Origin: an uncultured Gammaproteobacteria bacterium
GTDB lineage: Bacteria > Patescibacteriota > Patescibacteriia > Magasanikbacterales > GWA2-37-8
NCBI GenBank assembly: GCA_964540825.1
Contig: CAZINT010000002.1
Location: 477 to 64,476 of the forward strand
DNA: 64,000 bases
Direction of reading: 5' to 3'
In this document: one piece after another, positions 1,769-54,581 of the stretch
Numbering within the stretch: the first letter of the stretch is position 1
How the letters are laid out: each line of letters begins with the position of its first letter
Position numbers and translations under genes: made by a program
Notes under the pieces: model-generated
Told to the model about the DNA's origin: nothing
Seen by the model: only the letters and a program-made list of their open reading frames with translations
The model's database searches: none

Positions 1769-1840
1769 GGGGTCCTCCTCTAGGTAAAAAAGTCCTGTAA
1801 GTGGTGTATAACGAACCAGCTCTTCTGTCAATGTAGTTTA

Positions 1841-27491: not shown

Positions 27492-27598
27492 CTGAAATCG
27501 TTGCTAGTTTTTAACCAGCAAGTTGGTTAAGCAGTTTCTGAATTTATCAGTGTTAGGGGGTAATTTGTTCGCAGCATTGTTTTAAAAGCTTTGTGTAT

Positions 27599-37340: not shown

Positions 37341-38072
37341 TTAGATGGTTTCATTTCGATTAATAATATATGTTTTACGTTCACAGCTAAGCTGGTTAGT
37401 CGAAATCACTATTACACTTACTCTGACATCTTCTTCGTCGTTTTTAGGTTCAAAGGCCGCGTATATGTAAGTTGCTATTTTTTTGCAATCGCCTGAAGGC
37501 AATTTTAGCGGAATAGGCTTTCCAACAAAAGAAGGTGTAGGGCGAACATTGGGGCCATCATAGGTAGAAATGAATAGTGCATTTTCTTGGACTGTATCTA
37601 AAGCATAGCAATCTCTAACCGGTTCCTGGTAATCATTGCTGCGAATAATGTGTAAAGCACAGGTCCAATTTCCATTCTTTTCCAAAATGCAGCCCGTTAT
37701 GCGCGGAGTATTATATTTATCAATTTCGAATGTTTCATCTTTTAAATCTTCATTAAGTTGTTCCTCGGCATTATTTTTAGTCAATGAATGTACTCTATCG
37801 GTTTGTCTTCCATTGCCGATAATCAATCCAGTTTCGAAAAAATGAACAGCACTATAATCGAGTAAACTTAGATCACCTTGAGCCATTATTTCCGCGTCTG
37901 TAGCTTCAACAATAATAGATTTTTTATCTTCACTAAAAACATACCGCTTAGCTCGACTAGAAATATTTCTAGCGGTAACACCATACACGGCAATAATTTC
38001 TTCGTTTCTTTTTCCCAGAATAAGAAAACGACCGGGATAGGGCTTGTTTTTTGCTATTTCTTTAATTTCCAT
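37341..38072 (-). CDS. IMP cyclohydrolase PurO-like (archaeal-type, NTN-hydrolase fold) protein, tentative
   Basis: YPGRFLILGK…VYGVTARNISSRAKR…DKYNTPRI…LFISTY blocks resemble PurO (YLGRI…NTPRI…ISTY). This is based on remembered family features only. Confidence 0.4.
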   Translation of the reverse strand: MEIKEIAKNKPYPGRFLILGKRNEEIIAVYGVTARNISSRAKRYVFSEDKKSIIVEATDAEIMAQGDLSLLDYSAVHFFETGLIIGNGRQTDRVHSLTKNNAEEQLNEDLKDETFEIDKYNTPRITGCILEKNGNWTCALHIIRSNDYQEPVRDCYALDTVQENALFISTYDGPNVRPTPSFVGKPIPLKLPSGDCKKIATYIYAAFEPKNDEEDVRVSVIVISTNQLSCERKTYIINRNETI

Positions 38073-39221: not shown

Positions 39222-39355
39222 AAATTGTTTTGATCGGGTAGAGCTGAAGGTTTAGTATAAAAAGTAATATTATTGTACTCTACGAAATAAAAATTATCTA
39301 GATGTACATATTTAAAATAAAAATATTGGCTAATTTTAGCCAATATTTTTGAACG

Positions 39356-39427
39356 CTCCCGGGGTCGGATTCGAACCGACGACCAATTGGTTAACAGCCA
39401 ACTGCGCTACCGCTGCGCTACCCGGGA
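39356..39427 (-). tRNA. tRNA-Asn (anticodon GUU)
   Basis: Manual fold: 7-bp acceptor stem TCCCGGG/CCCGGGA, D arm GCGC…GCGC, anticodon loop CTGTTAA, T arm GTCGG-TTCGAAT-CCGAC, discriminator G. CCA is not encoded. Confidence 0.85.
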
Positions 39428-39433
39428 ATATAT

Positions 39434-39670
39434 TTATTTTCGTGATCCGTACGCTTCAGGGTTTAAAATATCTCTATCGTCTGGACCGTATTTTACACGT
39501 TTCGGTGTAACTGCCCCTGCCGATGGAGAAGGAACAAAACGATCTCCCACGATTTCTCCTTTTTTTGGTTCCGTAATAACATTATCGAGCATGCCTCCGT
39601 ACGGAAGTTCTGACAAAGATTGACGCGCCACCAAAAGAGGGGTTGATGGCGGTGAAAAGCGTCTTTTGCT
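39434..39670 (-). CDS. small hypothetical protein
   Basis: ORF immediately upstream of tRNA-Asn on the same strand. No family recognised. Start uncertain. Confidence 0.3.
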   Translation of the reverse strand, partial: SKRRFSPPSTPLLVARQSLSELPYGGMLDNVITEPKKGEIVGDRFVPSPSAGAVTPKRVKYGPDDRDILNPEAYGSRK

Positions 39671-39724
39671 CATATATTCTAAGAACGGTACTAGTATAGC
39701 GAAGCATTTTTGACCTGTCAACCA

Positions 39725-41092
39725 TTATAACAGTTGATAATTCTTAGCCGGCTCTTTCACGCGATTAAACACCACATCCATTATATTCTTTACCCCAAAT
39801 TGGCGTCCATCCAGGTATCCTGACATAGCCGCTTCCGCCAGCCATCCCGAGTTGACCCAGTCAAAAAGCCATTCGTGAGTATATCGCGGGTCGTTTTGGC
39901 TGATACCGCCATCAATAGTTTTGAGCCAAATGCGATTAAACTTTTCTTGGCTGCCAAGAGATGGTGCCATGATGATCGGGAGACCTAGCCCCGAGTAAAA
40001 AACGAGTTCACTGGGTTTAGTCCAAAGAATGTCTGTGGTGCGCAGTGCCTCATTAAAGATTTTAAAATATTCTTCTTTATCTGCAGCAAAAATGATCTTA
40101 AGATTTTTGTTAAGGCGTTTATCAAGGCCGAGTTCGAAAATACGTTGTTTGAAGTACAGGTAAACGTCGTTGCGGCTGCCTGCAACGAGATTAAGGTTAA
40201 TTTTTTTCTTAAGAAGTGTATCTTTAAGACTATACAAAATAGCCTCGGCAATTTTGCGCTGCGCACCAGCTCCGCCTACGGCGAAGGTGAGTGTAAGCGG
40301 GTGGTGGTGGCGGACACCGAGTTTTGTTTTTGAAATAAACTGTTTAATAGTGGAAGCATATTTTTGGCGATAGCGCTGTTCGGGGTCAAGGTTAATAATG
40401 CGCTCCGCCAAATCGTGCTGTAGTGTTTTTAAATGTGTGGAACCAATATTTTCCTCAGGGAGCGGGAAGCCGGTCAAGAAAATATTTTCGTTTTTAATGC
40501 CATAGAGCTTAAGACGACTAACTACCTGACGACACGGTGCGAAGTATTTAATACGGCTTTTAGTGGGGTGGAGCGGTGCCCAGGCGCGGCTGATGTCTGA
40601 ATCGCAAATAACCACGTAGATATCGTTTTTGAAACCGTGTTCTTCGGCCATAAACGCTACGGTAAAAAACGTGGTAATAAGGGGAATGTTTTTTTGATTA
40701 AGGTAATTGACAAGGTCTTTGCCCCAACCTTTATGTATTAAATAATAATTTTGACGTACCTGGAGGTTTGGTGCTGATAAGTCTCGGCGCGGATAAAATG
40801 GCGGAACTTCTTGAAATTTATCGAGTAAACCAAAAATGATACCGCCAATAAGTGGAAGGTTACTCAGGCGCGAAACAGATTCATACAATTTTTGACCGCC
40901 ATGCCACAGTTGGTAATCACTTGCCGGTATACCATTGTATTTGTTGGCAATAATAACTTTCCCGGTAGGGGAGAGGTGGCGCAGGGGATACGCCGCACGC
41001 TGGTGCCCATATCCCATATCAACAGCCACTACCCAAGCCTCCTTTTTCATAATAAACGAGAGAGAGCTTTTGAACGTACTCGAAAATTTCAA
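39725..41092 (-). CDS. glycosyltransferase, MGDG-synthase/UgtP-like (GT28-type) family
   Basis: N-terminal VVAVDMGYGHQRAAY motif typical of the MGDG synthase N-domain. About 450 aa with two Rossmann halves. Confidence 0.55.
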   Translation of the reverse strand: MKFSSTFKSSLSFIMKKEAWVVAVDMGYGHQRAAYPLRHLSPTGKVIIANKYNGIPASDYQLWHGGQKLYESVSRLSNLPLIGGIIFGLLDKFQEVPPFYPRRDLSAPNLQVRQNYYLIHKGWGKDLVNYLNQKNIPLITTFFTVAFMAEEHGFKNDIYVVICDSDISRAWAPLHPTKSRIKYFAPCRQVVSRLKLYGIKNENIFLTGFPLPEENIGSTHLKTLQHDLAERIINLDPEQRYRQKYASTIKQFISKTKLGVRHHHPLTLTFAVGGAGAQRKIAEAILYSLKDTLLKKKINLNLVAGSRNDVYLYFKQRIFELGLDKRLNKNLKIIFAADKEEYFKIFNEALRTTDILWTKPSELVFYSGLGLPIIMAPSLGSQEKFNRIWLKTIDGGISQNDPRYTHEWLFDWVNSGWLAEAAMSGYLDGRQFGVKNIMDVVFNRVKEPAKNYQLL

Positions 41093-41183
41093 GTGAGATT
41101 CAAAAATGTAACAAGCAAAGTAAGTATACTACAGAAATAAAAAAAATTCTACGAACTGTAGAATTTTTGGAGCAACTATTTTT

Positions 41184-41879
41184 TTAAGACTTTCGTTTGT
41201 TTTGCGCAAAGAGAAAGCCCATGGTCTTTTCAAATTTGGAAGGAAATATTTCCACGCTAAACCCGTGTTCACGCAGGCACGTTTCGATTAACTTGTAGGT
41301 TTTTGATTTAGTATTGTGATATTCAAGAATGATTGTTTCAATCATGCCGAAATCTTTATCGTCCCAACTGTCAAAAATTACATACTCGCCACCCTCAATA
41401 TCCATTTTAACGAGTGAAATTTTAGTAAGAGCGTACAGCGAGCATACTTCACTCAAAGAAATTGTTGCCACGCGAATTTTTTTGCCATCGCCTTTAAATG
41501 GTCGTTCAATGTAATGATTGTGGTTATCGCCAGCAATCATCAGATTTGCTCTACCGGTTTGATCGTGAAGCGCTTTTGGAATAATGGCTACATTGATAAG
41601 TTTATTTTGTTCGACAGTTGTTTGGAGTGCTTCCAGATTGTTTGGTTCAGGTTCAAGTGCAAAAATAGGTACGTTCGGGTTAAGGGCGTGTGCGTAGAGA
41701 CTAAAAAAACCGGCGTGCGCCCCGACATCTATAATAGGGTATGTTGCAGCTCGTATTTTTTCATCAGCCCGGCGATATTCATGTAATTTAAAAATTTCAG
41801 CAAAAACACTCCTATCCGCCTCATCACGGAGGGAAACCGTAAATATTTTATCATTGAACGTAAAAGTTCTTTTTTCCAT
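41184..41879 (-). CDS. FkbM family methyltransferase
   Basis: IIDVGAHAGFFS SAM-binding motif and the FkbM-like C-terminus. Confidence 0.75.
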   Translation of the reverse strand: MEKRTFTFNDKIFTVSLRDEADRSVFAEIFKLHEYRRADEKIRAATYPIIDVGAHAGFFSLYAHALNPNVPIFALEPEPNNLEALQTTVEQNKLINVAIIPKALHDQTGRANLMIAGDNHNHYIERPFKGDGKKIRVATISLSEVCSLYALTKISLVKMDIEGGEYVIFDSWDDKDFGMIETIILEYHNTKSKTYKLIETCLREHGFSVEIFPSKFEKTMGFLFAQNKRKS

Positions 41880-42009
41880 AGTTTGCCTAGTATAACAGTT
41901 TTTGAATCTATTTCAATAAAAAACCGGATCCAGCCTCAAAGTTCTATGATTAGAGCAGTAAGACGGGATCCGGTTGGATTCACTGCTGGGCTTGCGCCGG
42001 GCCATGAAT

Positions 42010-42321
42010 TTACTCGGATGGAAAGAGCGATTGTTCAAGCGCAAAGGGCGGTTGAATGCCTAGGTTCGATTGCGTGATCGTGTGGTCGGCAACCGTTTTT
42101 GCGTGCGTGATTGTTTCGACTGTAGAGAGGCAGTCGACGTTTTCCATGTAAAGTCTCGGATGCCGAAGATCTTTTTCTGCTTCAGTCAGCTCCAGGTATG
42201 GTTTACTATTGAAATCTGCCTGTGCAGTTGAAATTGTCGACGTGACCAAGATCATGTCTTCGCTGCTCGGAGAAGCTTCTCCGAGAACGGTAATGGCATA
42301 TGCCAGGTTTTTTTCACCCAT
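42010..42321 (-). CDS. hypothetical protein (103 aa), divergent partner of the high-GC gene
   Basis: SD GAGGA before the ATG. TTGACA-like promoter. A long-loop terminator follows at 41905-41965. Confidence 0.45.
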   Translation of the reverse strand: MGEKNLAYAITVLGEASPSSEDMILVTSTISTAQADFNSKPYLELTEAEKDLRHPRLYMENVDCLSTVETITHAKTVADHTITQSNLGIQPPFALEQSLFPSE

Positions 42322-42604
42322 GAATTCCTCACTTTAAGCTGTTTAACGTCATACATCTTTTTTAAGCAGTTGTCAAGATAGTTTCCCAAAAAAACCTTAT
42401 ACATTAGCCAAAAATAAACTTTTAAATTTTTTATGTACTTAGTAATTTTTTAGGATTGACAAAACACCTTTTTTATGCTAGGATTGAACGTTTTGAAAAG
42501 TAACCCGACGATTAATTTCGGCTCGTTGGGCTGCAGGTTCTCGAGTGGAGCTATTTGCAAGCTCCATTTGGAGAGGACCTGTTTTTCGATCAAGGAGTCA
42601 TCAC

Positions 42605-43813
42605 ATGCCGATCCAGTCTGTCGTCACCCCGATCACCTCCAACCTCAGCGATGGCGTCCCCGAGCTGCTTGGGGATGACAAGGACACCGACCGCATGGTC
42701 GTTCCGCCCTTTGTCCAGCCCCCCATGATTGGCCTTGCGCCCCCCGAGCGCGCGGTCCTGGAGGCGTACGCGCGGTTCTACGCCATGCTCAACCCCCAGC
42801 TCGAATTTCCGCAGCCAAGGATCATTGATGGCCAGTACTACTGCGGCATGCCCGCTGGCCTCCCGTGCTGCGACCGATCCTTCACGGTCGACAGGTGGAG
42901 CATCCGTAGCGGTATCGTGATCGGGATTTGCCAGCAGGCGAGTGTTGTTTTCGTGAAGGTGAACAATCACGAGTACCCCGCGGCCAAGCACCTCCTCTGG
43001 ACCGGCTCCCTGACCCGGGCCAGGGAGATCGCCGCCAACCAGGCAGAGAAGATCCAGCGCCCGCCCGCCCAGGCCCGCCCCGTGCGTCGTCGCCCCGAGG
43101 ATCTCGTGGTCAAGCCGACGTCCGGTACGATCTTCCGTCCCATCCCTCCGAAGAAGGTGTTCGTCCCGGCCGCGGTCACCCCCGCGCCTGCGATCACTAT
43201 CACCGTGGCCACCCCGGCCGCTGTCATCAAGGAGGACAAGAACAAGGGTGCCGAGAAGCGCGTCGCCCGCAAGACCAAGGTCCACGAGCTCACCTCGCGC
43301 CTCCGCCTCGTCGGCATGGAGGAGAACGAGGCCTCCAGCGCCGCCGAACGAGTGGCGTACAAGTTCGAGAAGAAGACCGGTAGCGAATTGACCCCAGAGG
43401 ATAGTGCGTCGAACATCTTCGGCAGCGCCATCGACGGGCTTCTCGAGGCCGCCGCGACCTTCGGGGAAGATAACGCCGAGTATCAGGTCAAGATCAGGCT
43501 GTGCCGCTACTACCTGGCGGCCTCCACTATCCTCGAGTCGATCCTGACCGGAGAGACCGACGTGGAGCAGATCAAGCGCCACGACCACCCCGAGATCATG
43601 GACAAGATCGTGAGCATGCTCGCGGCTGTCAAGCATGAGCTCGCGGATCGTGCGGCCATCGCTCGCGCCCACGCCGTGCCCAGCGAGAAGCCCTTCGCTG
43701 TCGTCGAGGGCCACCGCCGACGCCCGACCCCGGTCGCGCCCACCAAGAAGCTCGGGGGTGGTCAGAACGCCAACAAGAACAACAACCAGGCCCGCGGCAA
43801 GCGCGGGCAGTAG
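42605..43813 (+). CDS. hypothetical protein (402 aa), very high GC (~65%) foreign gene, Ala/Pro-rich
   Basis: TTGACA-N17-TAGGAT promoter at 42457-42487. SD AAGGAG 7 nt before the ATG. Strong third-position GC bias. The terminator at 43856-43895 follows. No family recognised. Confidence 0.6.
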   Translation: MPIQSVVTPITSNLSDGVPELLGDDKDTDRMVVPPFVQPPMIGLAPPERAVLEAYARFYAMLNPQLEFPQPRIIDGQYYCGMPAGLPCCDRSFTVDRWSIRSGIVIGICQQASVVFVKVNNHEYPAAKHLLWTGSLTRAREIAANQAEKIQRPPAQARPVRRRPEDLVVKPTSGTIFRPIPPKKVFVPAAVTPAPAITITVATPAAVIKEDKNKGAEKRVARKTKVHELTSRLRLVGMEENEASSAAERVAYKFEKKTGSELTPEDSASNIFGSAIDGLLEAAATFGEDNAEYQVKIRLCRYYLAASTILESILTGETDVEQIKRHDHPEIMDKIVSMLAAVKHELADRAAIARAHAVPSEKPFAVVEGHRRRPTPVAPTKKLGGGQNANKNNNQARGKRGQ

Positions 43814-43855
43814 GAGTAACCGAGGTCTTCGTGCCTCGGCAGCGCCTCGAATTTT

Positions 43856-43895
43856 CGAGCGCGGCCCCGTCTTCGGGACCGCGCTCTTTCTTTTT
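43856..43895 (+). terminator. rho-independent terminator (gagcgcggccc-cgtcttcg-ggaccgcgctc + TTTCTTTTTT)
   Basis: GC-rich hairpin plus T-run. Confidence 0.6.
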
Positions 43896-43990
43896 TAAGG
43901 AAAAATATTTTATTCAAATAAAGATAATCAGGTTAAGGTTGCCTTTTTACAGCTTTCGAGTATACTGAAGACATAGTTACTTATCTAATC

Positions 43991-44602
43991 ATGTGTATGA
44001 TTAAAATTTACGGTTCAGCTCAGAGCAGCGCAGCGCGTTCTATTTGGATGCTGGAAGAACTTGAAGTACCTTATGAACAGCAGTCGCTTAATTTTAAGGA
44101 AAAAGAGCACAAATCCGAATGGTATCTTAAATTAAATCCTAACGGTAAAGTACCAACTTTAACGGATGGTGAATTTGTACTGTGGGAGTCCTGCGCGATC
44201 AATGATTATTTAGCCGAAAAATATCGCCCTGAAATGCTTGGTACGACGCCCGAAGAACGCGCTCTTGTTGCTCAGTGGACCTATTGGAGTTTACTCCATC
44301 TTCAACGCAACATTGATCCAATTTTGTATTTTATGATGTTTAAAATGGGAACAGAGGAGGCTGCCAATCAAGGGCGTATTGATGTTGTGCGCTATCTTGA
44401 GGTGCTTAATCTTTCACTTGCCAGTAAAGAGCATATTGTTGGTAGCACATTTACAGTTGCAGACTTAAATCTGGCTTCAATTATCCATATGGCAACGCAG
44501 GTACAGGTAGATCTATCAACTTACGGCAATATTATTGCCTGGTTTGAAAAAATTAAAGCTCGACCATCGTATGCCAAGTTGATGCAAAAAATGCAGGGTT
44601 AG
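43991..44602 (+). CDS. glutathione S-transferase
   Basis: N-terminal thioredoxin-like GST domain (KIYGSAQSSAARSIWMLEEL…GKVPTL) and a C-terminal helical domain. Confidence 0.8.
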   Translation: MCMIKIYGSAQSSAARSIWMLEELEVPYEQQSLNFKEKEHKSEWYLKLNPNGKVPTLTDGEFVLWESCAINDYLAEKYRPEMLGTTPEERALVAQWTYWSLLHLQRNIDPILYFMMFKMGTEEAANQGRIDVVRYLEVLNLSLASKEHIVGSTFTVADLNLASIIHMATQVQVDLSTYGNIIAWFEKIKARPSYAKLMQKMQG

Positions 44603-44623
44603 AAAATTATTAAAATAGTCCGG

Positions 44624-44655
44624 AACTTGCCGGACTATTTTTTATTGTGTAATTG
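44624..44655 (+). terminator. rho-independent terminator (tagtccgg-aactt-gccggacta + TTTTTTATT)
   Basis: Hairpin plus T-run. Confidence 0.6.
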
Positions 44656-44701
44656 CTGTTTTAGTGTAAATGAGGTATACTTTTTATAAAAATATCAATG
44701 T

Positions 44702-45370
44702 ATGTGTTTTTCTCCAACCGCTAGTTTTGCTGCTGGTGTTGCCATTGGCACTGTAGGCATAGCAACACTTAAAAATGTAAAAGATCGCCGCGAAATACCT
44801 TTTGCGCTTGTTCCGCTTATTTTTGGTATTCAACAAATTATAGAAGGGTTTGTGTGGTTGTCGTTTGGGTGGGAACCGGGCTTACATCAAACCTTTGCAG
44901 TTATATATTCTATTTTTGCGCTGTCAGTCTGGCCCATGTGTTTGCCGGTGGCCATTCTTCTTTTAGAAAATCATGAATTTAGACAAAAAATTCTCATGGT
45001 AATTAGTTTAGCTGGCATTGCGGTTGGCGGGTTCTTGCTGTATCGGGTTTTTGCCCATCCACCCACGGCCTATGTACTTAATAGCTGCATTCATTACGAT
45101 GTAGTAACTCCGTATAGTAATTTGCTGTGGGCCGCGTATGTGCTTGTGGTTGTGGGGGCAGGAGTGGTTTCAAGCAAAAAAACAGTGCAAGTATTTGGCG
45201 CCGTACTTTTAGGTTCGTTGTTATTTGCCGTTCATCAGTATAAAGAAAACGCCATTTCGGTGTGGTGCTTTTTTTCCGCACTCCTTAGTGCTGTGGTGTA
45301 TTGGCATTTTAATCGATTGCCTACTAAAAAAAATAATAAAAGGTCTTTAAAACACGAAGCCGGCAGATGA
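44702..45370 (+). CDS. hypothetical membrane protein (6 TM)
   Basis: Hydrophobicity pattern. A bidirectional hairpin follows at 45357-45390. Confidence 0.5.
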   Translation: MCFSPTASFAAGVAIGTVGIATLKNVKDRREIPFALVPLIFGIQQIIEGFVWLSFGWEPGLHQTFAVIYSIFALSVWPMCLPVAILLLENHEFRQKILMVISLAGIAVGGFLLYRVFAHPPTAYVLNSCIHYDVVTPYSNLLWAAYVLVVVGAGVVSSKKTVQVFGAVLLGSLLFAVHQYKENAISVWCFFSALLSAVVYWHFNRLPTKKNNKRSLKHEAGR

Positions 45371-45405
45371 CCAATCTGTCGGCTTTTTTGAAAATGAGCG
45401 GGTGG

Positions 45406-46053
45406 TTATGTGCACTGCTCGAGCGCTGATTTCGCGAGCTGGTAGGCATAGGCGTTGTCGATCAGCCGCTCAAGAGCCGGGCAGCCTCGGAACATCACGG
45501 ACGCTCTTCTGCCCAGCTTCACCGTAAGGCTTTTCCTCAAATTCGGGCCCGGGATGCGGGTCGCTTCGAAAACCTCCGTGATGCTGAGTGATTGCTCAAT
45601 GCGCCGTGCAACATCCTGGTGTATGAGCGCAACAGCGCTCAGCGCTTGGGGAATGGTTGCCCGAAAATCCACTTCGCAGAGCTTCGCAATACTCTGCATC
45701 GCTGCTTCAAAACCACCGCTTTGCCCGGGGGTTTTATTGCCCTGGATCAAAAGCTTCGTCTTGAGGGTCACACCGGCACCAATGAGAACCGCCTTGAGGG
45801 GGTCGGTCGAAGTGGTGTCGGCGGATTTGACGGCCATTAATCCATCAACGATATCGTAGACATTCGCCCGCGCGAGCAGAGGGTGGTCGGCCCTCAAGCT
45901 TGGTGCGCCAAGGAGCACGCCGACGTGCCTAAAGAAACGAAACGAGGCGTGCCCGCTGCTGACGCTATCAGCCAACCACTGGAAGAGACTTTGGCTGCGC
46001 AGTTCGGCCGGCAGAATCTCCTTCCCGGTCAGGTTAGAGACAGTTGCGTTCAT
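45406..46053 (-). CDS. hypothetical protein (216 aa), GC-rich (~57%) foreign gene
   Basis: SD GGAGG 5 nt before the ATG at 46053. GC is above the flanks. No family recognised. Confidence 0.5.
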   Translation of the reverse strand: MNATVSNLTGKEILPAELRSQSLFQWLADSVSSGHASFRFFRHVGVLLGAPSLRADHPLLARANVYDIVDGLMAVKSADTTSTDPLKAVLIGAGVTLKTKLLIQGNKTPGQSGGFEAAMQSIAKLCEVDFRATIPQALSAVALIHQDVARRIEQSLSITEVFEATRIPGPNLRKSLTVKLGRRASVMFRGCPALERLIDNAYAYQLAKSALEQCT

Positions 46054-46221
46054 TGGGTTCCTCCGCAAGATAGTAAGGAAGCGTTGTTGTTTTTCGTTTG
46101 TTTTTTTAAAACGAATAGCCAGTGTTGTAAAACTTTCTCGGGTGCTTGTCAATACTTTTTGGCAATAGCCTGTGTATATGATATAGTGATTGCGACTTAC
46201 TTATTAAATTTAAGATTTTGT

Positions 46222-46911
46222 ATGCGTCAACCAATTGGATTACTCACAATTTTTGCAGCCAGTATAGTGCTTATATGCACTGGTTGCGGCGCAAGCACAA
46301 AGGAGCAAACAACCGCGACAGTACCTGTACCACAATCACAGCCGACAGATGCAATGACAAATCCTTCAGACACCACTAAGACACTTGAAGAAAATACTGC
46401 CATGGCAGCAAAAGTTGATAGCGCTTCTTCAGAAGGCGCTGCCACCAATCTTGCTATCGGGGTTACTGCTAATACTAACGTAAACACAGCACTAAAAACC
46501 CAGCTTGAAGCTTCGTATAATAACCTCGTTCAGGTAATTGCTTCGGGAGACAAAGATGGTTTCGTAATGATTATGGATCCAGAGAAAAAAAGCCCGTCCC
46601 CGACAGATGATCAGTGGAAACAAGCCTTACCGGTAATTAGTAAGACATTCCCTGCGCTCAGTACGACTCAATTCTTAAAAATTGACCAAAAAAACGAAAC
46701 GCGCGCATATTATTATTACCTTACGAATCTACAAGACAAAAGTTACACTTCGGTAAATGTTGCCATTTTCAACAAAATTAATGGTGAGTGGAAAATCTCT
46801 GGAAATATTTTTAGCTCCAATTTTCCAAAATCCAGCGATGAGGCTAAAGAAAAAGAGGCTATTGTCAAGGCAACGGCGAGTTTGAGTGCAAAGGCCGATA
46901 ATGCCGAATAA
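46222..46911 (+). CDS. lipoprotein, hypothetical
   Basis: Signal peptide ending in LICTGC. The long ORF was truncated to the ATG at 46222 to avoid overlap with the opposite-strand gene. Confidence 0.55.
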   Translation: MRQPIGLLTIFAASIVLICTGCGASTKEQTTATVPVPQSQPTDAMTNPSDTTKTLEENTAMAAKVDSASSEGAATNLAIGVTANTNVNTALKTQLEASYNNLVQVIASGDKDGFVMIMDPEKKSPSPTDDQWKQALPVISKTFPALSTTQFLKIDQKNETRAYYYYLTNLQDKSYTSVNVAIFNKINGEWKISGNIFSSNFPKSSDEAKEKEAIVKATASLSAKADNAE

Positions 46912-47235
46912 TTGAATAACGTAGGCTAAAATCAGCTCAACAAAGAGCTGATTTTGATTTAAGAAGAGTTATCCACTTGTACTTTTATTTGAGGGGTGTA
47001 CGGTAGATATATACAGAGGGAAAGAACATCACTATCTAAAACAGTGTGTAACCAAGGAAAAAACTTTCGTTATGTAAAGCCCTGCCGCGTGCTAGGACTG
47101 GTCAGCGGATGAGCTTTCGTAATCGGAACAAGTATCCTTGTTATGCATTTTTTAAGGTAGTGATCCTGTCCCTCCGCTATAAAGCCAGGCAACGCGAAAC
47201 CCACGTTGCCTATTTTTAAGTAGTAGTATAGTCCT

Positions 47236-47865
47236 ATGCCCGCAGTTCAAAATCAATTCAAAAAGTCACTCCGTGCCTTGTGCCTCGTGGCAAGTGTCTT
47301 TACGCTCGTTTTTTTTGTACTTCAACAACCTTCGTTAGCAGCGGCCCAGGGAACAGACATTGTTCCACCAATTACCGAACAGCCTGATTTGCCGCCTCCG
47401 ACACCCCAGCCCGACGTACCGCCGCCAACAGCACAACCGGATGTAACTTTGCCTCAACCTGAGCCTCAACTTGTGCCGCCAATTACTCCGCAGCCTGATC
47501 TTCCGGTGCCAACCTACACCAATGCTCCCGTTGTCTCGGTTGCTTCCTGGGGTGATTTTATAGGGCTCGGCTCCACCGACCCGCGGCTTATCATTGCCCA
47601 ACTGATCCGTGTCGCTCTCAGTTTTTTAGGTATTGTGTTTTTAGTTATGATATTGCTTGCCGGTTTTACCTATTTAACTGCCGGTGGCAATGATGAGCGT
47701 GCTGCATCGGCCAAACACACCCTTTTCAATGCTATTATTGGTATCATCATTATCTTAAGCGCCAACAGTATCGTTATGTATGTAGTAAAAGCCTTCAATG
47801 GAACTACAGACGCGGCAGCCGTAACTTCGCCCGCCACGCCCACGGTAAATAATGTTGGGCTCTAA
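47236..47865 (+). CDS. secreted Pro-rich repeat protein with a C-terminal two-TM hairpin (VirB2/TrbC pilin-like)
   Basis: Signal peptide. PxPD[LV]PPP(T)xQPD repeats. The C-terminal ~100 aa has two hydrophobic helices with a Gly-rich turn. Confidence 0.5.
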   Translation: MPAVQNQFKKSLRALCLVASVFTLVFFVLQQPSLAAAQGTDIVPPITEQPDLPPPTPQPDVPPPTAQPDVTLPQPEPQLVPPITPQPDLPVPTYTNAPVVSVASWGDFIGLGSTDPRLIIAQLIRVALSFLGIVFLVMILLAGFTYLTAGGNDERAASAKHTLFNAIIGIIIILSANSIVMYVVKAFNGTTDAAAVTSPATPTVNNVGL

Positions 47866-47915
47866 AGAAAACTAAAAAACAAGCACTTTTTAAGTGCTTG
47901 TTTTTTAGATGCTAA

Positions 47916-48302
47916 TTAATTTCCAAGCATTTTTGACGCTTCCTCCATTGCTTCCGCGTAAGCTTTTTCAGCGGCCGCAAGCGCAGTTTTTGAATGATTT
48001 GCCTTTGCTTGAGCGCTCGCTTTTACGTAAGCTGTGTGCGCCGTGCTAATAAGTTCGAGATAGCCGGGTGGGGGAGCTAACTGTCCTTTAGCTACAGCGA
48101 CATTCGTCACAACCGCGGCAGCTGTCGGTGTCGTTTTTTTAACTGCAGTCTTTTTAACCGTTTGCTTGGTGGCGGTAACTTTTTTAGCTGCAGGAACTGA
48201 TTTTTTCGTGGCGGCGAAAGCGGGAGTGCCAAACGTTACTCCGACGAGCAGCAGGACTAAAAGAATTTTTTTCATAAACAGGCAGGTTAAAAGCTTAGAC
48301 AT
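47916..48302 (-). CDS. small secreted Ala/Lys-rich protein
   Basis: Signal peptide (MKKILLVLLLVGVTFGTPAFA). The start may be 48275. Confidence 0.5.
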   Translation of the reverse strand: MSKLLTCLFMKKILLVLLLVGVTFGTPAFAATKKSVPAAKKVTATKQTVKKTAVKKTTPTAAAVVTNVAVAKGQLAPPPGYLELISTAHTAYVKASAQAKANHSKTALAAAEKAYAEAMEEASKMLGN

Positions 48303-48392
48303 CCTAACACGGCCTCATTAAAATGAGCAAGACGCCATATTGTGATTTTGTTTAAAAATAGCTATACTAAGAGTAATTTACGTTTATCATTC

Positions 48393-49670
48393 ACTATGAA
48401 GCTGCTCAAATCAATCAAACGTTTCCTCAAAGGATGTGGCCCGGGTTTTATTACCGGCGCGTCAGACGATGATCCGTCCGGGATAGCCACATACTCTCAG
48501 ACCGGCGCACAATTTGGTTTTAGCCAGCTCTGGTTAACGATTTTAACTTTGCCGTTCATGATTGCGATTCAAGAAATGTGCGGGCGTATCGGACTTGTGA
48601 CCGGGCAAGGCCTCTCAGGAGTTATTAAAAAAAATTATGGCCGACCGCTTCTGTATGGCGCGGTAGCGATTCTTCTTGTTGCTAACACGATCAATATTGG
48701 CGCCGACCTTGGAGCCATGGCTTCCGCGCTCGGACTCGTTATCCCGCTTCCTTTTATTGTTTTACTTATTTTGATTACAGTCCTCACGCTTGTCCTCGAA
48801 ATTTTTGTTTCTTACCACGTGTATGTTAAGTATTTAAAGTACTTAGCATTATCGCTGTGTGCTTATATTGTAACCGTGTTTGTTATCAAACTTGATTGGC
48901 GTGTAGTGGCTGTTTCAACATTAGTGCCCCATGTTACGTGGAGTAAAGAATATTTATTTAATATCGTTGCGCTGCTTGGTACAACGATTTCCCCATATTT
49001 ATTTTTTTGGCAAGCAGATGAAGAGGTGGAAGAAGAAATTGATCATAAAAAAATTCAAGCATTTGGCGAGGGAAAGCCTCGCGTTACTAAGCGTGACATT
49101 GCCAGCATGAAAAGTGATACCGTTATTGGTATGTTATTTTCCAATATCATCACTTTTTTTATTATTGTAACAGCTGCCGGAACACTCGGCGCCAACGGCG
49201 TCACGTCTATCACTACCGCCACTGAAGCTGCCGAAGCCCTGCGTCCGCTTGCCGGAAATTTTGCCTTTATTCTGTTTACTATTGGGATTATCGGAACCGG
49301 TCTCCTGACGGTGCCGGTACTTTCCGGTTCTGCTTCGTATGCTATAGCAGAGGCAGTCGGTTGGAAATCAGGTTTATACCGAAAATTATCCGAGGCTCAT
49401 GGTTTTTATGGAGTTATCACACTCGCCACGCTGGTTGGCTTGCTCGTCAATTTTGTCGGTATCCCGCCGTTTAAAATGCTCTATTACACCGCCGTGCTTA
49501 ATGGTGTTGTGGCGCCACCCCTCATGATTTTAATTTTATGTCTGGCCAATAATAAAAAGGTGATGGGGCATCGTACTAACTCCACGCTTTCCAATATTTT
49601 CGGAATCATCATTACACTTATTATGTCATTGGCTGGTCTTACACTTATTGGTTCATATTTTATACACTAG
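48393..49670 (+). CDS. mntH: NRAMP-family divalent metal (Mn2+/Fe2+) transporter
   Basis: GPGFITGASDDDPSG N-terminal signature. 11 TM helices. Confidence 0.85.
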   Translation, partial: TMKLLKSIKRFLKGCGPGFITGASDDDPSGIATYSQTGAQFGFSQLWLTILTLPFMIAIQEMCGRIGLVTGQGLSGVIKKNYGRPLLYGAVAILLVANTINIGADLGAMASALGLVIPLPFIVLLILITVLTLVLEIFVSYHVYVKYLKYLALSLCAYIVTVFVIKLDWRVVAVSTLVPHVTWSKEYLFNIVALLGTTISPYLFFWQADEEVEEEIDHKKIQAFGEGKPRVTKRDIASMKSDTVIGMLFSNIITFFIIVTAAGTLGANGVTSITTATEAAEALRPLAGNFAFILFTIGIIGTGLLTVPVLSGSASYAIAEAVGWKSGLYRKLSEAHGFYGVITLATLVGLLVNFVGIPPFKMLYYTAVLNGVVAPPLMILILCLANNKKVMGHRTNSTLSNIFGIIITLIMSLAGLTLIGSYFIH

Positions 49671-50565
49671 GACTCGGGTTGTGCGCTTCGCAAAGTATCT
49701 TCAAAAACTCATTACGCTTTTATTGTTTATTGTCCTCGCGGTGCTGCTGGGGACAATTGGGTATAAAGTATCAGCGCTTCGTGCGAAAAAAACACCTGTC
49801 ACAGAGCATGGACCCCGAACGCTCCCGATAGTTTTTTTGCTGCCCCACCAAGATGATGAAATGTTTATGGCTGGTGCTATGCAGCAGGCGCTGGCGAGCG
49901 GCAGGGAAGTGTACGTGGTTATGGTAACTGACGGATCGAATTCACGGGCGCGCCACATTATTAATGGGCAGGATGCCGGCGAGCATCCCGTTATGGATAC
50001 CGTCTATCATTATATCCACCGGCCGCTGCGTGAAGGGTATGCGCCGCTCGATAGACGCATGTTTGCCGAAGCGCGTAACAAAGAATACGCGGCTTCCGTT
50101 GCGGCGCTGGGTGTTTCGCCGGGGCATATTTGGTTTGCTAACCCTGGAAAAATTGCCGGATCTGATTCACCGCGTTTTGTTAATGATCAGCTAACAACTG
50201 CAAGCGCAACCGATGCCATCAATCAAGTATTCAAAATCGTGGGGGACGGCACCTACGCTACAGTCGCCGCCAATTTGGGTATGATTAACGCTCAACACGG
50301 CGATCATTATGCGCTTCGTGAAGCGCTTCGTACTTATACGGGTATTCGTGAAAAGCAATTCTTTTCCGAAAAGACAAATACCGGAAATGCGGTGCCATTG
50401 ACCCCTGCCGAGATAGCTCGTAAGCGTAAGGCCTTGGCTAACTATTTTGTATGGAATCCAAAAAAAGGACGTTTTGCCGTTGGAGAGCATTCGGTGCTCA
50501 TGCTTTTGGAGCGCTGGTCCAAAAATCCTTTTGAGTATGTTATTGATAGCACTGATCTTAAGTAA
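49648..50565 (+). CDS. PIG-L/LmbE family N-acetylglucosaminyl deacetylase
   Basis: LLPHQDDEMF (PHxDDE zinc-binding motif) after an N-terminal TM anchor. Confidence 0.7.
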   Translation: MVHILYTRTRVVRFAKYLQKLITLLLFIVLAVLLGTIGYKVSALRAKKTPVTEHGPRTLPIVFLLPHQDDEMFMAGAMQQALASGREVYVVMVTDGSNSRARHIINGQDAGEHPVMDTVYHYIHRPLREGYAPLDRRMFAEARNKEYAASVAALGVSPGHIWFANPGKIAGSDSPRFVNDQLTTASATDAINQVFKIVGDGTYATVAANLGMINAQHGDHYALREALRTYTGIREKQFFSEKTNTGNAVPLTPAEIARKRKALANYFVWNPKKGRFAVGEHSVLMLLERWSKNPFEYVIDSTDLK

Positions 50566-50631
50566 TCAGTAAAAAGCACATTTTAGTTACGGCTTTACGT
50601 TTTGAGCTTGTTTTGCTAGAATAAGCCCATT

Positions 50632-51306
50632 ATGGACTCTGGAATTCTCTATATTGTAGCTACACCAATCGGTAACCTCAGCGATTTTACCGAACGCGGG
50701 ATATCGACGCTGCGCGATGTCGATCTTATTTTATGCGAAGATACGCGCGTTACTAAAAATTTGCTAACTCATTTTGGCATTACTGCTCAGACAATGAGTT
50801 ATCATCAGCACAGTGATGTTAAAAAAATAAAAGAAATTGTTGCATTGCTTGAGGAGGGTAAAGATATTGCTCTGGTCACCGATGCCGGTACCCCGGGAAT
50901 CAGTGATCCGGGAAATGTCTTGGTAGAGGCAGTGCTCAAATTTAATCCCTCTACCCAAGTTATTCCTATTCCCGGCGTTGCGGCGGTGACTGCCGCCCTA
51001 TCTATTTCCGGCTTTCAAACTGACAAATTTTTATTCTTGGGTTTTCCGCCGCACAAAACAAAACGCCAGAAATTTTTTAAAGAGGCTGCCGAAAGTCCGT
51101 ATACAATAGCGTTTTACGAATCGGGGCATCGCATTAAAAAATGTCTTGATGAACTGCCTCATTTTTTTGAGCCAAGTCAAAGAATTATGGTTTGCCGTGA
51201 ACTTACTAAAAAATTTGAAACCACCTACCGCGCAACCATTGCTACTATTGGGGAACAGATGAAAGATGATAGAGGGGAATTTGTGATCGTAATTTCTAAA
51301 ATATGA
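50632..51306 (+). CDS. rsmI: 16S rRNA (cytidine1402-2'-O)-methyltransferase
   Basis: ILYIVATPIGNLSD…LCEDTR tetrapyrrole-methylase-like RsmI motifs. Confidence 0.85.
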   Translation: MDSGILYIVATPIGNLSDFTERGISTLRDVDLILCEDTRVTKNLLTHFGITAQTMSYHQHSDVKKIKEIVALLEEGKDIALVTDAGTPGISDPGNVLVEAVLKFNPSTQVIPIPGVAAVTAALSISGFQTDKFLFLGFPPHKTKRQKFFKEAAESPYTIAFYESGHRIKKCLDELPHFFEPSQRIMVCRELTKKFETTYRATIATIGEQMKDDRGEFVIVISKI

Positions 51307-51650
51307 AACCTCGTTCACTCGAAGAGCTCGATGCGCTTCGCGCTGATATAAAAATGGCTGCTCGCCAAGAAGCACTTAAACGACCGCTGCCCGATAAATT
51401 CTTCAATGGACTTTTTAGAGAATTCTTCAGTAAGAATAATCTGCATGTTCGATGGATCTGTAAAGATACCGATGACACCGATAATCCGGGGTATACTATT
51501 GATTTTTGCAGCGCAAGCGGAAACGTACTTAAAAAAGTGGAATTTAAACACGGAGAAGAAAGCAAGGCGGCAGAAGCGTATGAACATATGATTAAAGAAG
51601 CGGAAAAGTATGATACGCTGACACCGCCATCTAGAAAGCCTAAAAAATAA
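51303..51650 (+). CDS. hypothetical protein (115 aa)
   Basis: 4-nt overlap with rsmI and a 3-nt gap to metG. No family recognised. Confidence 0.45.
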   Translation: MKPRSLEELDALRADIKMAARQEALKRPLPDKFFNGLFREFFSKNNLHVRWICKDTDDTDNPGYTIDFCSASGNVLKKVEFKHGEESKAAEAYEHMIKEAEKYDTLTPPSRKPKK

Positions 51651-51652
51651 TT

Positions 51653-53200
51653 ATGAAAAAACCTTATTTTCTTTCAACTGCTATTCCGTACGCGAGCGCC
51701 GCGCCGCATATCGGCCATGCGATTGAATTTTTATACGCAGATGTCATGGCTCGGTATCAGCGCCTCCTTGGTAACGAAGTCTTTTTTTTAACTGGTACCG
51801 ATGAACATGGGCTTAAAGTCGTGAAAACTGCGGCTGATTTTGGCTTGTCTCCTGACAATTATGCGGCCAAGATGTCAGCTCTCTATCAAAACCTCGCGGA
51901 TACGTGGAATATTTCGAACTCGGATTTTATTCGCACAACCGAAGAGCGCCATAAATTAGGAGCCCAGAAATTTTGGAGTGCGGTGGCATCAAACGGGGAT
52001 ATTTATAAAAAAGCATACACAGGACTCTATTGCATTGGTTGTGAAAGTTTCAAAACGGAAAAAGATTTAGTTGACGGCAAATGCCCGGATCACCACACAG
52101 TTCCCGAATTGCTGACAGAAGAAAATTATTTTTTCCGTTTATCGCGCTACCAAGAACCGCTCGAATTTTTGTTCAAAAATAATCCCGCCTTTGTTACCCC
52201 GGAAAGTAAATACAAAGAAGTCTACAACATGCTTAAAAGTGGTCTTGAGGACGTGAGTATTTCACGTGTTAAAGAAAAGCTCGCCTGGGGTGTACCGGTT
52301 CCAGGCGATGATACTCAGGTGATGTATGTTTGGTTTGATGCGCTCACTAATTATATTACTGCGCTTGGGTATGGGAGTGCTGACGAAAGTTTGTTCAAAC
52401 ACTATTGGCCCGGGACGCATTTGGTAGGTAAAGAAATCAATCGTTTTCATTCACTTCTGTGGCCGGCCATGCTGATGGCTGCCGGGCTTGAGCCGCCGAA
52501 GCAAATTGCCGTACACGGCTGGATTACGGTCGAAGGTCAAAAGATGAGCAAGACTATTGGTAATGTTATTAATCCCCTTGAATTAACCGAACAGCTTCCG
52601 CTTGAAGCGGTCCGTTATTTCCTTATGCGCGAAATTCCGTTTGATAATGATGGTGATTTTTCGCGTGCTAAATTTTTGGAACGCTACCAGGGAGACCTGG
52701 CTAATGGCGTCGGAAATTTAACTAACCGTATTTTAACGATGGTTGAAAAATATTGCGAAAGCGTCGTTCCGCAAGTTTCCACGGTAAATACCGAGTTGAT
52801 CAATTTTTTAAGTGCCAAAATTTGGCCAGCCTACACCGAAGCTATGAACCGCTGGCGCTTTGATCATGCGCTTGAAGAAGTGATGCGTTTTGTGACGCAT
52901 TGTGATCAGCTTATTTCCGACAAACAACCGTGGGCACTGGCAAAGCAAGGCGAAACTATTTTGGTGAATGACCTCCTTCATCATTTGGTGGAAAGCTTGC
53001 GTCATATTGCGCTTATGCTATGGCCGATAATTCCTGAGACTGCGGAAAGCATTTTGCGCCAACTTGGCCTCGAAGTCGAAAAAGAATTTGCGAAACCGCT
53101 TAGCGAATTACATCAGTGGGTGGAACTCGTAGTCGGTAATAAAATTACTAAGACTGCAATGCTCTTCCCGCGTCTTGAAGAAGCTGCTCCAAAAAAATAA
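51653..53200 (+). CDS. metG: methionine--tRNA ligase
   Basis: HIGH motif (PHIGHA), KMSKT motif and a Zn knuckle (CIGCESF…CPDH). Confidence 0.9.
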   Translation: MKKPYFLSTAIPYASAAPHIGHAIEFLYADVMARYQRLLGNEVFFLTGTDEHGLKVVKTAADFGLSPDNYAAKMSALYQNLADTWNISNSDFIRTTEERHKLGAQKFWSAVASNGDIYKKAYTGLYCIGCESFKTEKDLVDGKCPDHHTVPELLTEENYFFRLSRYQEPLEFLFKNNPAFVTPESKYKEVYNMLKSGLEDVSISRVKEKLAWGVPVPGDDTQVMYVWFDALTNYITALGYGSADESLFKHYWPGTHLVGKEINRFHSLLWPAMLMAAGLEPPKQIAVHGWITVEGQKMSKTIGNVINPLELTEQLPLEAVRYFLMREIPFDNDGDFSRAKFLERYQGDLANGVGNLTNRILTMVEKYCESVVPQVSTVNTELINFLSAKIWPAYTEAMNRWRFDHALEEVMRFVTHCDQLISDKQPWALAKQGETILVNDLLHHLVESLRHIALMLWPIIPETAESILRQLGLEVEKEFAKPLSELHQWVELVVGNKITKTAMLFPRLEEAAPKK

Positions 53201-53221
53201 TTTTAATTTTAATATAACAAT

Positions 53222-53812
53222 ATGCCAGTGGGGGACATAGTGATTATCGTGGTAGTCGCACTTTTTGCGCTATCAGGGCTTCGTTCGGGATTTATCAAAA
53301 CCTTGGGGTCGCTCCTTGGTACAATTCTCGGGGTGTATATTGCCGGTCATTACTATGCGCCGCTGACTGACCTGCTTGTCAAATTCACCGGTTGGGCACC
53401 GAATTTTATTCGCATTGTTGTCTTCTTGCTCTTGTTCATTATCAGCAATCGTCTTATAGGGCTCTTGTTCTGGTTTATCAATAAAGCAATAGGCATAATT
53501 ACTCGGCTCCCATTTCTGAGTACTATTGATCATGTTCTCGGAGCGGTTGTCGGTTTTGTGGAGGGTGTCTTAGTAGTTGGAATTGCTATTTTCTTTATTA
53601 CGCGGTATCCTCCGAGCCAAGGCTTTATGACTAAGCTTGGCGAGTCAAAAATGGCGCCGAAGGCTGTGCAGGCAGCGTCGTTTCTGTGGCCGCTCTTGCC
53701 GAAAGAATTGGTCGATCTCGTCGGAGATGTGGCAGGAATAAAACTGCCGAACGGTTTATCGCTGCCCAAGGATTTTGACTGGAAAAACATGGTCAGTACT
53801 ACCAAAAAATAA
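53222..53812 (+). CDS. CvpA family membrane protein
   Basis: Four TM helices with the CvpA-like N-terminus (DIVIIVVVALFALSGLRSGFIK). Confidence 0.65.
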   Translation: MPVGDIVIIVVVALFALSGLRSGFIKTLGSLLGTILGVYIAGHYYAPLTDLLVKFTGWAPNFIRIVVFLLLFIISNRLIGLLFWFINKAIGIITRLPFLSTIDHVLGAVVGFVEGVLVVGIAIFFITRYPPSQGFMTKLGESKMAPKAVQAASFLWPLLPKELVDLVGDVAGIKLPNGLSLPKDFDWKNMVSTTKK

Positions 53813-53837
53813 TCTATTATTTATCTGATGTAATTTT

Positions 53838-54578: not shown

Positions 54579-54581
54579 GCT

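Follow-up and report, generated by a model that had tools for sequence, protein, structure and literature searches.

The GC-Rich Gene and Its Expression Signals

The DNA analysed here, hereafter the window, is a stretch of 64,000 nucleotides from contig CAZINT010000002.1 of assembly GCA_964540825.1. At positions 42605-43813 of its plus strand lies a 402-aa open reading frame (ORF) encoding a protein designated P0001, the base composition of which departs sharply from that of the surrounding DNA. In 300-bp segments, the GC content steps from 0.35-0.39 (42200-42650) to 0.60-0.67 (42500-43850) and returns to 0.37 by 43850-44150, and no other 1-kb block of the window exceeds 0.52. The ORF has a GC content of 0.652 against 0.445 for the window, with values of 0.635, 0.457, and 0.864 at the first, second, and third codon positions (GC1, GC2, and GC3), and the other 57 ORFs of the window show a mean GC3 of 0.435 (sd 0.072), which places the 402-aa ORF at z = 6.0. 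Its codon choice is equally distinct, with an AAG/(AAA+AAG) ratio of 1.0 versus 0.24 in host genes and A at 3% of the four-fold sites versus 18% in host genes. The strong three-base periodicity of GC identifies the plus-strand frame of 42605-43813 as the coding one. A protein identical to P0001 is already recorded at NCBI, and the gene call made at the island in the Logan assembly is a 374-aa antisense ORF, recorded publicly as protein P0023, a singleton. The elements of the locus are as follows.

42413..43924, plus strand: insertion/deletion unit (promoter, leader, ORF, and terminator), missing in the closest relative
42456..42484, plus strand: near-consensus sigma-70 promoter with an extended -10 (TTGACA, 17 nt, TAGGAT, with TG before the -10)
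42492..42604, plus strand: predicted 5' leader of ~113 nt, 47% GC, with two stem-loops in the RNA fold
42605..43813, plus strand: 402-aa coding sequence of P0001 (44 kDa, isoelectric point (pI) 9.3; rich in Ala, Pro, Val, and Arg)
43814..43896, plus strand: 3' untranslated region (UTR) with a pair of GC-rich hairpins and, after the second of them, a U-tract (intrinsic terminator); fold of -42.4 kcal/mol, z = -3.9
42590..43714, minus strand: 374-aa antisense shadow ORF, not a gene (GC1 0.85 and GC3 0.63, mirroring the pattern of the coding frame)
42010..42321, minus strand: divergent 103-aa orphan gene, a singleton cluster and variable neighbour

A promoter scan located the -35 box (TTGACA) at 42456-42461 and the -10 box (TAGGAT) at 42479-42484, with 10 of the 12 consensus positions matched. 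The leader folds at -42.1 kcal/mol (z = -4.0 against 200 shuffles) and leaves single-stranded the Shine-Dalgarno (SD) sequence AAGGAG (42592-42597), which lies 7 nt upstream of the ATG. Past the stop codon, the sequence UCUUUCUUUUUU follows the two strong hairpins of 43814-43896, a terminator that a simple terminator scan did not flag. No Rfam family matched the island, leader included, at E < 0.1. The first-pass annotation had proposed a plus-strand protein-coding gene at these coordinates, with a GC excess of about 20 points and a third-position G/C bias, a TTGACA-N17 promoter, an AAGGAG SD, and a GC-rich terminator. All of this was borne out.

Regarding the host, the methionyl-tRNA synthetase (MetRS) gene of the window (51653-53200) is 95% and 82% identical to those of two uncultured metagenome-assembled genomes (MAGs), here L004 and L005, respectively, and 64-75% identical to those of MAGs labelled Candidatus Magasanikbacteria or Patescibacteria. 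Judged by these genes, the genome is Magasanikbacteria-like, within the Candidate Phyla Radiation (CPR). Cultivated members of the CPR are episymbionts, and the annotators' guess of an episymbiont-type host agrees with the MetRS matches, the best of which belong to Magasanikbacteria MAGs.

Protein P0001 and a Family with a Four-Cysteine Domain

P0001 consists of an acidic N-terminus, a conserved cysteine-containing domain (Cys4 domain), a basic linker, a helical domain, and a polybasic tail, and shows no evident signal peptide or transmembrane segment. Both the Cys-containing N-terminal motif CGMPAGLPCCDRSF and the low-complexity linker PAAVTPAPAITITVATPAAV noted earlier were found in its translation. 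The regions after the N-terminus are listed below.

42740..43054, plus strand: conserved Cys4 domain, aa 46-150, with invariant C80, C88, C89, G107, and C109
43055..43240, plus strand: basic Pro/Ala-rich low-complexity linker, aa 151-212, pI 11.4, identified by composition and without secondary structure in the single-sequence model
43241..43672, plus strand: helical C-terminal domain, aa 213-356 (helices within 214-355 in the single-sequence model, at low confidence)
43673..43810, plus strand: polybasic Gly/Asn/Lys/Arg tail, aa 357-402, pI 11.8, with 10 Lys and Arg against 2 Asp and Glu

A full HMMER search of 1.84 billion representative proteins retrieved 17 remote relatives, with E values between 2e-24 and 9e-4. 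Each aligns solely within residues 46-160 of P0001, and several also carry zinc-finger modules of the CxxC type. The domain has the consensus CGLPxxVxCCDxxxPxxRFxxxxGxVYGLC and occurs 38 times in 18 proteins, with one to three copies in each. In alignment A1, which comprises 22 domain copies, the invariant columns are C31, C39, C40, G58, and C60. AlphaFold2 run on this alignment gave a confident alpha/beta domain (pLDDT 92.9, pTM 0.80), in which the four invariant cysteines are predicted to lie at the ends of two beta-hairpins and at the N-terminus of a helix; Foldseek found no fold relative of this model in PDB or BFVD at E < 0.1. The single-sequence AlphaFold model of the whole protein (pLDDT 44) was too poor to use. 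By our own reading of the listed tails, a comparable G/K-rich ending (e.g., ...GGKKNKK) is present in about 14 of the 18 family proteins.

Beyond these relatives, no homologue of P0001 was detected in Pfam, NCBIfam, PHROGs, PADLOC, or the PDB sequences. In a word-index search of 5.8 billion clustered proteins, P0001 retrieved only itself, and neither A1 nor the protein of the L005 cassette described below retrieved anything. Six-frame tblastn searches with P0001 and P0006 were empty in 50,697 phage records from GenBank and 72,556 plasmid records from PLSDB, and the motifs of P0001 had no match in the GTDB species genomes. A DNA motif of the Cys domain had no match in 2.9 million viral contigs and four in JGI metagenomes, the sole true member among them being locus L092. 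A literature search returned nothing relevant on the gene family. On this evidence, P0001 is best described as a member of an undescribed, fast-evolving gene family with a new Cys4 domain of about 100 aa. Since genes were called on the wrong strand and the L005 protein is missing from the protein collection, the family is under-counted and the 17 relatives represent a lower bound.

A Strain-Variable Site

The promoter, leader, ORF, and terminator, together referred to as the cassette, are missing in the closest relative. By blastn and alignment, positions 42352-42412 of the window correspond to 848-907 of L004 and positions from about 43925 to 45331 correspond to 955-2343, so that about 30 unrelated bp stand in place of 42413-43924, between flanks of about 83% nucleotide identity. 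At the same intergenic site, between a methyltransferase and a glutathione S-transferase (GST) gene, L005 carries a different cassette of 63-70% GC (GC3 0.94) with the same layout: a TTGACA-17 promoter, a hairpin leader of about 140 nt, an AAGGAG sequence, an ORF ending in ...KKGKKQK, and a hairpin terminator. Its protein has no Cys region, and its C-terminal half is 24% identical to that of P0001 over 172 aa (pairwise E = 7e-7). The locus is thus strain-variable, as suspected. Direct repeats were detected neither around the unit nor elsewhere within 2.2 kb, and no island segment has a second copy in the 64-kb window.

The divergent 103-aa gene, which the first-pass annotation had regarded as a possible regulator or partner sharing a promoter region of about 220 bp, does exist, although the intergenic distance is 283 bp. 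It has its own promoter (TTGACA-17-TATGAC, with the -35 at 42371-42376 on the minus strand) and an SD of sequence GAGG, and its product has no match in Pfam, PHROG, PADLOC, or NCBIfam. Its promoter, SD, and last ~8 codons are conserved in L004; the body is not (BLASTP E = 0.04), being replaced by an unrelated 122-aa ORF of 58% GC in L004 and by a 71-aa ORF of 63% GC in L005. The proposed role fails on this replacement and on the lack of any counterpart at the other family loci, and the gene is another variable orphan at this hot spot, not a conserved partner or regulator.

A 16-nt inverted repeat with 88% complementarity (41946-41961 and 43977-43992) brackets the 103-aa gene and the cassette, which may be due to chance. 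In addition, a second variable spot lies 1.5 kb downstream, with a 248-aa orphan at 45406-46152 on the minus strand (GC 0.55, GC3 0.64) that is not in the protein collection; at this spot, L004 (2364-4831) and L005 (5499-7103) have a 534-aa multi-pass membrane protein instead, and L004 also a 272-aa orphan. The nearest tRNA gene, for tRNA-Asn (39355-39427, minus strand), is located upstream of this variable DNA at a distance of about 3 kb.

The GC Anomaly across the Family

DNA was recovered for 12 cassettes from several unrelated projects, corresponding to 11 Cys-domain genes (the window, L084, L085, L086, L088, L092, L093, L094, L095, L096, and L097) and to the positional analogue in L005. 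All 12 showed the same anomaly, with gene GC of 0.60-0.69 and GC3 of 0.80-0.95 between flanks of 0.37-0.53 GC, and every member with recovered DNA stands about 15-27 GC points above its own genome. The AAG/(AAA+AAG) ratio ranges from 0.91 to 1.0 (0.24 in host genes), the GAG share from 0.71 to 1.0, and A at four-fold sites from 1 to 6% (18% in host genes). The proteins themselves share just 24-46% identity. Most cassette leaders have a GC content of only 0.35-0.49, which ties the anomaly to the ORF.

One comparison was that of L086 and L094, two positional orthologues in which the family gene lies upstream of genes for DeoC/DUF2090 and an NTP-transferase. The promoter and leader are 75% identical in nucleotides, DeoC 72% in nucleotides and 76% in amino acids, and the NTP-transferase 69% in amino acids. 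The family ORFs are 54% identical in nucleotides and 24% in amino acids, yet both keep a GC3 of 0.84-0.86. The conserved leader and flanks around a diverged ORF indicate that the cassette descended with the chromosome and that the ORF turned over at a near-neutral rate, and a GC3 kept at about 0.85 despite that turnover calls for a continuing G/C bias in the ORF, which a decaying donor signature cannot explain. GC-richness therefore persists while the protein turns over much faster than its own UTRs and neighbours.

Two possible causes of the high GC content were rejected. Adaptation to the optimal codons of the host is contradicted by the presumably highly expressed genes for ribosomal proteins S6 and S18, elongation factor P, and ATP synthase, which use AAA and GAA as the rest of the host genome does. 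Selection for specific mRNA folds within the ORF is likewise not supported, as ORF segments fold at about -51 kcal/mol per 150 nt versus about -34 for MetRS, at z of about -0.4 against shuffles of the same composition.

The expression signals also recur across the family. Each of the 12 cassettes shows TTGACA followed, after a spacer of 17 nt, by an extended -10. A weight matrix derived from the promoters of 10 cassettes, that of the island included, ranked the island promoter as the top match of the window (29.7 bits; runner-up 18.8) and gave 33.6 bits to the promoter of L092, which had been held out. The matrix had 11 hits of at least 27 bits in the 1.4 Mb of fetched loci, every one of them ahead of a family gene. 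Family genes consistently carry near-consensus promoters, rare in the fetched loci, and are probably strongly expressed, to judge from these signals. The idea of a family-specific promoter was discarded: the pattern TTGACAAAA-N6-TTTTGTG-N-TAT has more than 120 exact matches in viral contigs without a GC anomaly downstream (mean difference -0.9 points, maximum +8.5), and the cassette promoter is thus a generic strong sigma-70 consensus.

In one subfamily, an AT-rich leader with two hairpins (L084 237-364, L086 400-562, L094 1545-1698) shows six compensatory pairs in the three sequences, and 3' UTR elements are common to L085 and L086 and to L086 and L094. This leader, which has no Rfam match, may be regulatory. 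The family loci have no conserved neighbour gene; their contexts include 5S rRNA (L084, L085, L094), RNase J, DeoC, and UMPH-1.

Origin of the High GC Content

Taken together, we consider it likely that the island is a strain-variable autonomous cassette of an undescribed CPR family, and that its high GC content is a maintained trait of that family rather than the mark of a donor. The cassette would be a self-contained unit, acquired or lost whole and made up of a near-consensus extended -10 promoter, a structured leader with AAGGAG, the 402-aa ORF, and a hairpin terminator, and the family would so far be confined to genomes of middle or low GC, belonging to CPR/Patescibacteria wherever the context can be judged.

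As to what maintains the composition, our tentative proposal, which we hold with less than even confidence, is a process restricted to the ORF, leaving out the UTRs, in a CPR-specific class of strongly expressed and rapidly evolving genes that keeps GC3 at 0.8-0.95 within genomes of 40-50% GC. It would be of one of two kinds: selection on message composition (for an RNase-proof, durable mRNA, say, or for codon matching to a GC-rich host cell where the product or message would act) or exceptionally strong GC-biased conversion at a hot spot. Among possible causes of the high GC3, we would rank first selection on the base content of the ORF or its message, favouring for instance a long-lived mRNA resisting AU-preferring RNases; the hairpins at the two ends are in line with this. 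Gene conversion biased towards GC, acting where recombination is frequent, would come second, in keeping with the raised GC1 and GC2 and the frequent replacement at the site shared by the window and L005. Third would be recurrent replacement by genes of a GC-rich pool, as yet unsampled, that circulates among CPR; this idea rests on the presence of other GC-rich islets in related loci, though their proteins are unrelated.

Several points weigh against a maintained family trait. The cassettes of the window and L005 share just a weak C-terminal similarity and 52% leader identity, so that here a replacement through transfer and a divergence on the spot are equally likely. Raised GC1 and GC2 are explained equally well by biased gene conversion or by GC-rich ancestry. 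The ORF mRNA is no more structured than its shuffles, so selection at the RNA level would act on composition. The DNA context covers 11 of the 18 family proteins, CPR membership is shown for the window and L005 and deduced from context at the other loci, and the function of P0001 is read solely from sequence features. Finally, GC-rich islets encoding ordinary-looking proteins (L006, L038) indicate that import from GC-rich donors happens in this lineage.

The first-pass annotation had considered the gene clearly horizontally acquired from a high-GC donor, possibly an actinobacterial host or partner, and had proposed a search for homologues in donor taxa. A single recent and unameliorated transfer of this kind, the promoter having been brought along or captured, would account for the sharp 20-point GC step, the absence of the cassette from the closest relative, and the C-ending codons and AAG and GAG, which we take to resemble those of GC-rich bacteria, and the other GC-rich islets in related genomes show that such imports occur. 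Deviant composition and patchy presence (the empty site in L004, whose MetRS is 95% identical) are indeed what a transferred island would show. However, no homologue outside the family appeared among 1.84 billion proteins, 5.8 billion clusters, the phages, the plasmids, or the GTDB motif scan, and the search for donors yielded just the 17 relatives of one family, all cassettes with DNA lying in contexts of 37-53% GC. The 12 cassettes share the anomaly at 24-46% protein identity with no decay towards the host (GC3 of 0.80-0.95 in all members), conserved AT-rich UTRs surround a hyperdivergent GC-rich ORF in positional orthologues, and the island has no adjacent tRNA target or flanking direct repeats, nor was an integrase domain found among the window ORFs scanned. 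The assertion of a clear transfer was therefore not upheld, and we regard a single recent import as unlikely.

An origin as the moron-like remnant or cargo of a GC-rich mobile element that infects CPR and repeatedly delivers such cassettes, which would explain both the constant GC and the phage-type promoter, seems to us similarly improbable. Phage morons, described in lambdoid phages, are autonomous promoter-gene-terminator units of deviant base composition. The cassette matches this textbook layout: a lone gene, placed between unrelated genes and present or absent among close relatives, is served by a sigma-70 promoter and a factor-independent terminator of its own, an arrangement also seen in L005 and the other family loci. 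Moreover, its exact promoter pattern is common in viral contigs, and a single intergenic site sees cassettes come, go, or give way to others. Nevertheless, it sits in an ordinary chromosome and not in a phage or prophage. The window neighbourhood encodes an FkbM methyltransferase, a GST, a DUF6629 protein, Nramp, MetRS, TatD, ATP synthase, and isoprenoid genes, no integrase or transposase domain was found among about 29 window ORFs scanned, and integrase, transposase, or capsid genes were found neither in the window nor at the family loci, where the neighbours are housekeeping genes or 5S rRNA. The Cys motif has no viral-contig match and tblastn was empty in phages and plasmids, viral-contig genes that follow this promoter pattern show no GC enrichment, and the leaders of L086 and L094 diverge at the chromosomal rate. 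Furthermore, unlike in morons, the anomaly is family-wide and persists through deep divergence.

Two known mechanisms were also rejected. An integron gene cassette does not agree with the presence of its own promoter, with the lack of a detected integrase, or with 3' hairpins that end in a U-tract, which marks a terminator rather than an attC site. A target of a diversity-generating retroelement was dismissed for lack of a second island copy in 64 kb and of repeats within 2.2 kb, a reverse transcriptase not having been sought in every ORF.

That the stretch is a structured non-coding RNA with an incidental ORF has practically no probability: a GC-rich segment within an AT-richer genome often proves to be a structured RNA, and the folds of both UTRs are significant, but the ORF has strong periodicity (GC3 0.86 versus GC2 0.46), a Cys motif conserved at the protein level among genes of about 55% nucleotide identity, and a confident protein-domain model, has no Rfam match, and folds no better than its shuffles. 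An assembly chimera, which the first-pass annotation had kept as an escape clause, or the binning of a GC-rich contaminant with the MAG, either of which the abrupt compositional break might suggest, can be set aside, as a 28.8-kb Logan contig of Sequence Read Archive run SRR11567520 (fetched pieces covering 39394-54602) is 100% identical to the window across both junctions, a 1593-bp contig of SRR11567528 is 100% identical over 41489-43081, crossing the left one, and the union of a host-like AT-rich promoter and leader with a GC-rich ORF recurs in 11 other contigs of unrelated projects. Two independent assemblies thus reproduce the left junction exactly, one of them also the right.

Other GC-Rich Islets in Related Loci

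Across the related loci with a GC content of at most 0.50, which total 758 kb, just four further islets exceeded the background by 15 GC points or more, all encoding unrelated proteins.

L006 1854-2507, minus strand
L038 1677-2159, minus strand
L015 7066-7536, minus strand
L020 2301-3200

These proteins, some with ordinary-looking motifs, led us to abandon the notion of a general class of GC-rich cassettes; in L006, for instance, the stretch RPDIIFVSTRIRAQQTAERA resembles, to our eye, a histidine phosphatase. It is plausible that the four islets are ordinary imports from GC-rich donors.

Comparison with Known Systems and Possible Function

Other described systems share part of these properties. 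The PE_PGRS ("polymorphic GC-rich sequence") genes of Mycobacterium owe their GC excess to Gly-Ala repeat codons in an already GC-rich genome. Like them, the cassette family is lineage-restricted, polymorphic, fast-evolving, and GC-richer than its genome; unlike them, its excess lies mainly in third positions of a non-repetitive ORF, in a genome of 44% GC, and there is no sequence or domain relationship. The cassette resembles classical horizontally acquired genomic islets and ORFans in its atypical composition, patchy distribution, and lack of annotated function, and differs from them in having no identifiable donor, mobility genes, or flanking repeats, no amelioration over 12 cassettes, and native-like conserved UTRs.

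With respect to function, the four-Cys domain is most likely a metal (Zn) site, or else a redox or disulfide-stabilised knot, as far as the sequence can tell. The four invariant cysteines (C80, C88, C89, and C109 in 22 domain copies) and the CxxC...CxxC modules of relatives recall zinc ribbons and treble clefs. In contrast to these, the spacing is C-x5-7-CC-x16-19-C, with vicinal cysteines and no CxxC knuckle, and neither Foldseek nor hidden Markov model searches found similarity in fold or sequence to any solved structure, zinc ribbons and treble clefs included. The Cys4 domain, the zinc-finger modules, and the polybasic tail together suggest an abundant protein that would bind a polyanion such as nucleic acid.

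Alternatively, the polybasic tail could act as an export signal. Some substrates of type IV secretion systems (T4SS), such as VirE2 and VirF of Agrobacterium and the Beps of Bartonella, carry positively charged C-terminal signals. P0001 likewise has a polybasic C-terminal tail (pI 11.8), lacks a Sec signal, and is encoded near a gene of family PF18895; it differs from those substrates in having no BID or other known effector domain, and a basic tail is non-specific, being just as typical of proteins that bind nucleic acids. A secreted or interface role may nonetheless apply, given the fast evolution, the presence/absence polymorphism, and the nearby T4SS-pilin-like gene. The latter gene (PF18895, E = 7.5e-10) lies 3.4 kb downstream at 47236-47865 on the plus strand, and its N-terminal half is rich in both GC and Pro; neither a coupling protein nor VirB4 was identified in the window, where no search was aimed at other T4SS components.

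Atypical GC content is routinely taken as proof of recent transfer and used for guessing donors. If our reading is true, this family would be a clean counter-example, in which atypical GC reflects adaptation or mechanism instead of ancestry, and it would provide a natural system for studying what holds an ORF about 40 GC3 points above its genome. The work also adds a new, confidently modelled Cys4 domain without a fold match to the poorly understood accessory genome of the CPR, in genes whose near-consensus promoters and fast evolution are expected of proteins at a symbiont-host or phage interface. In addition, the antisense shadow ORF was the gene call of at least one public pipeline, and surveys based on proteins therefore miss some genes of this kind. 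It is probable that strand assignment goes wrong systematically for GC-rich genes of AT-richer genomes, hiding such families from protein searches; if so, gene callers that choose the wrong strand would leave a CPR gene class largely invisible in protein databases.

Additional Observations

Three of the family cassettes lie just downstream of a 5S rRNA gene, at the end of an rRNA operon (L084 1-87, L085 1-354, L094 524-1383), and the 23S rRNA of L094 carries a group I intron adjoining a LAGLIDADG ORF. At L097, a second GC-rich ORF (1643-1936, plus strand; 97 aa, GC 0.69) overlaps the family gene at its stop codon, and the pair may represent a two-gene version of the cassette. In CPR genomes of 59-61% GC, a similar promoter (24-27 bits) precedes orphans of 497-545 aa adjoining TatD (L039 11064-12701 and L041 15010-16641, both on the minus strand), which have basic stretches and a C-x8-C motif and no detectable homology to the family.

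Finally, the 28.8-kb Logan contig stops inside the tRNA-Asn gene, at window position 39394, an assembly break that may stem from strain variation. Further upstream, the window carries an IMP-cyclohydrolase-like gene (37341-38072, minus strand; PF07826, the archaeal PurO type) and an isoprenoid/carotenoid-type cluster (27593-31764, plus strand) with amine-oxidase/desaturase-like, squalene/phytoene synthase, polyprenyl synthetase, and UbiA genes, both of them unusual for a reduced CPR genome.

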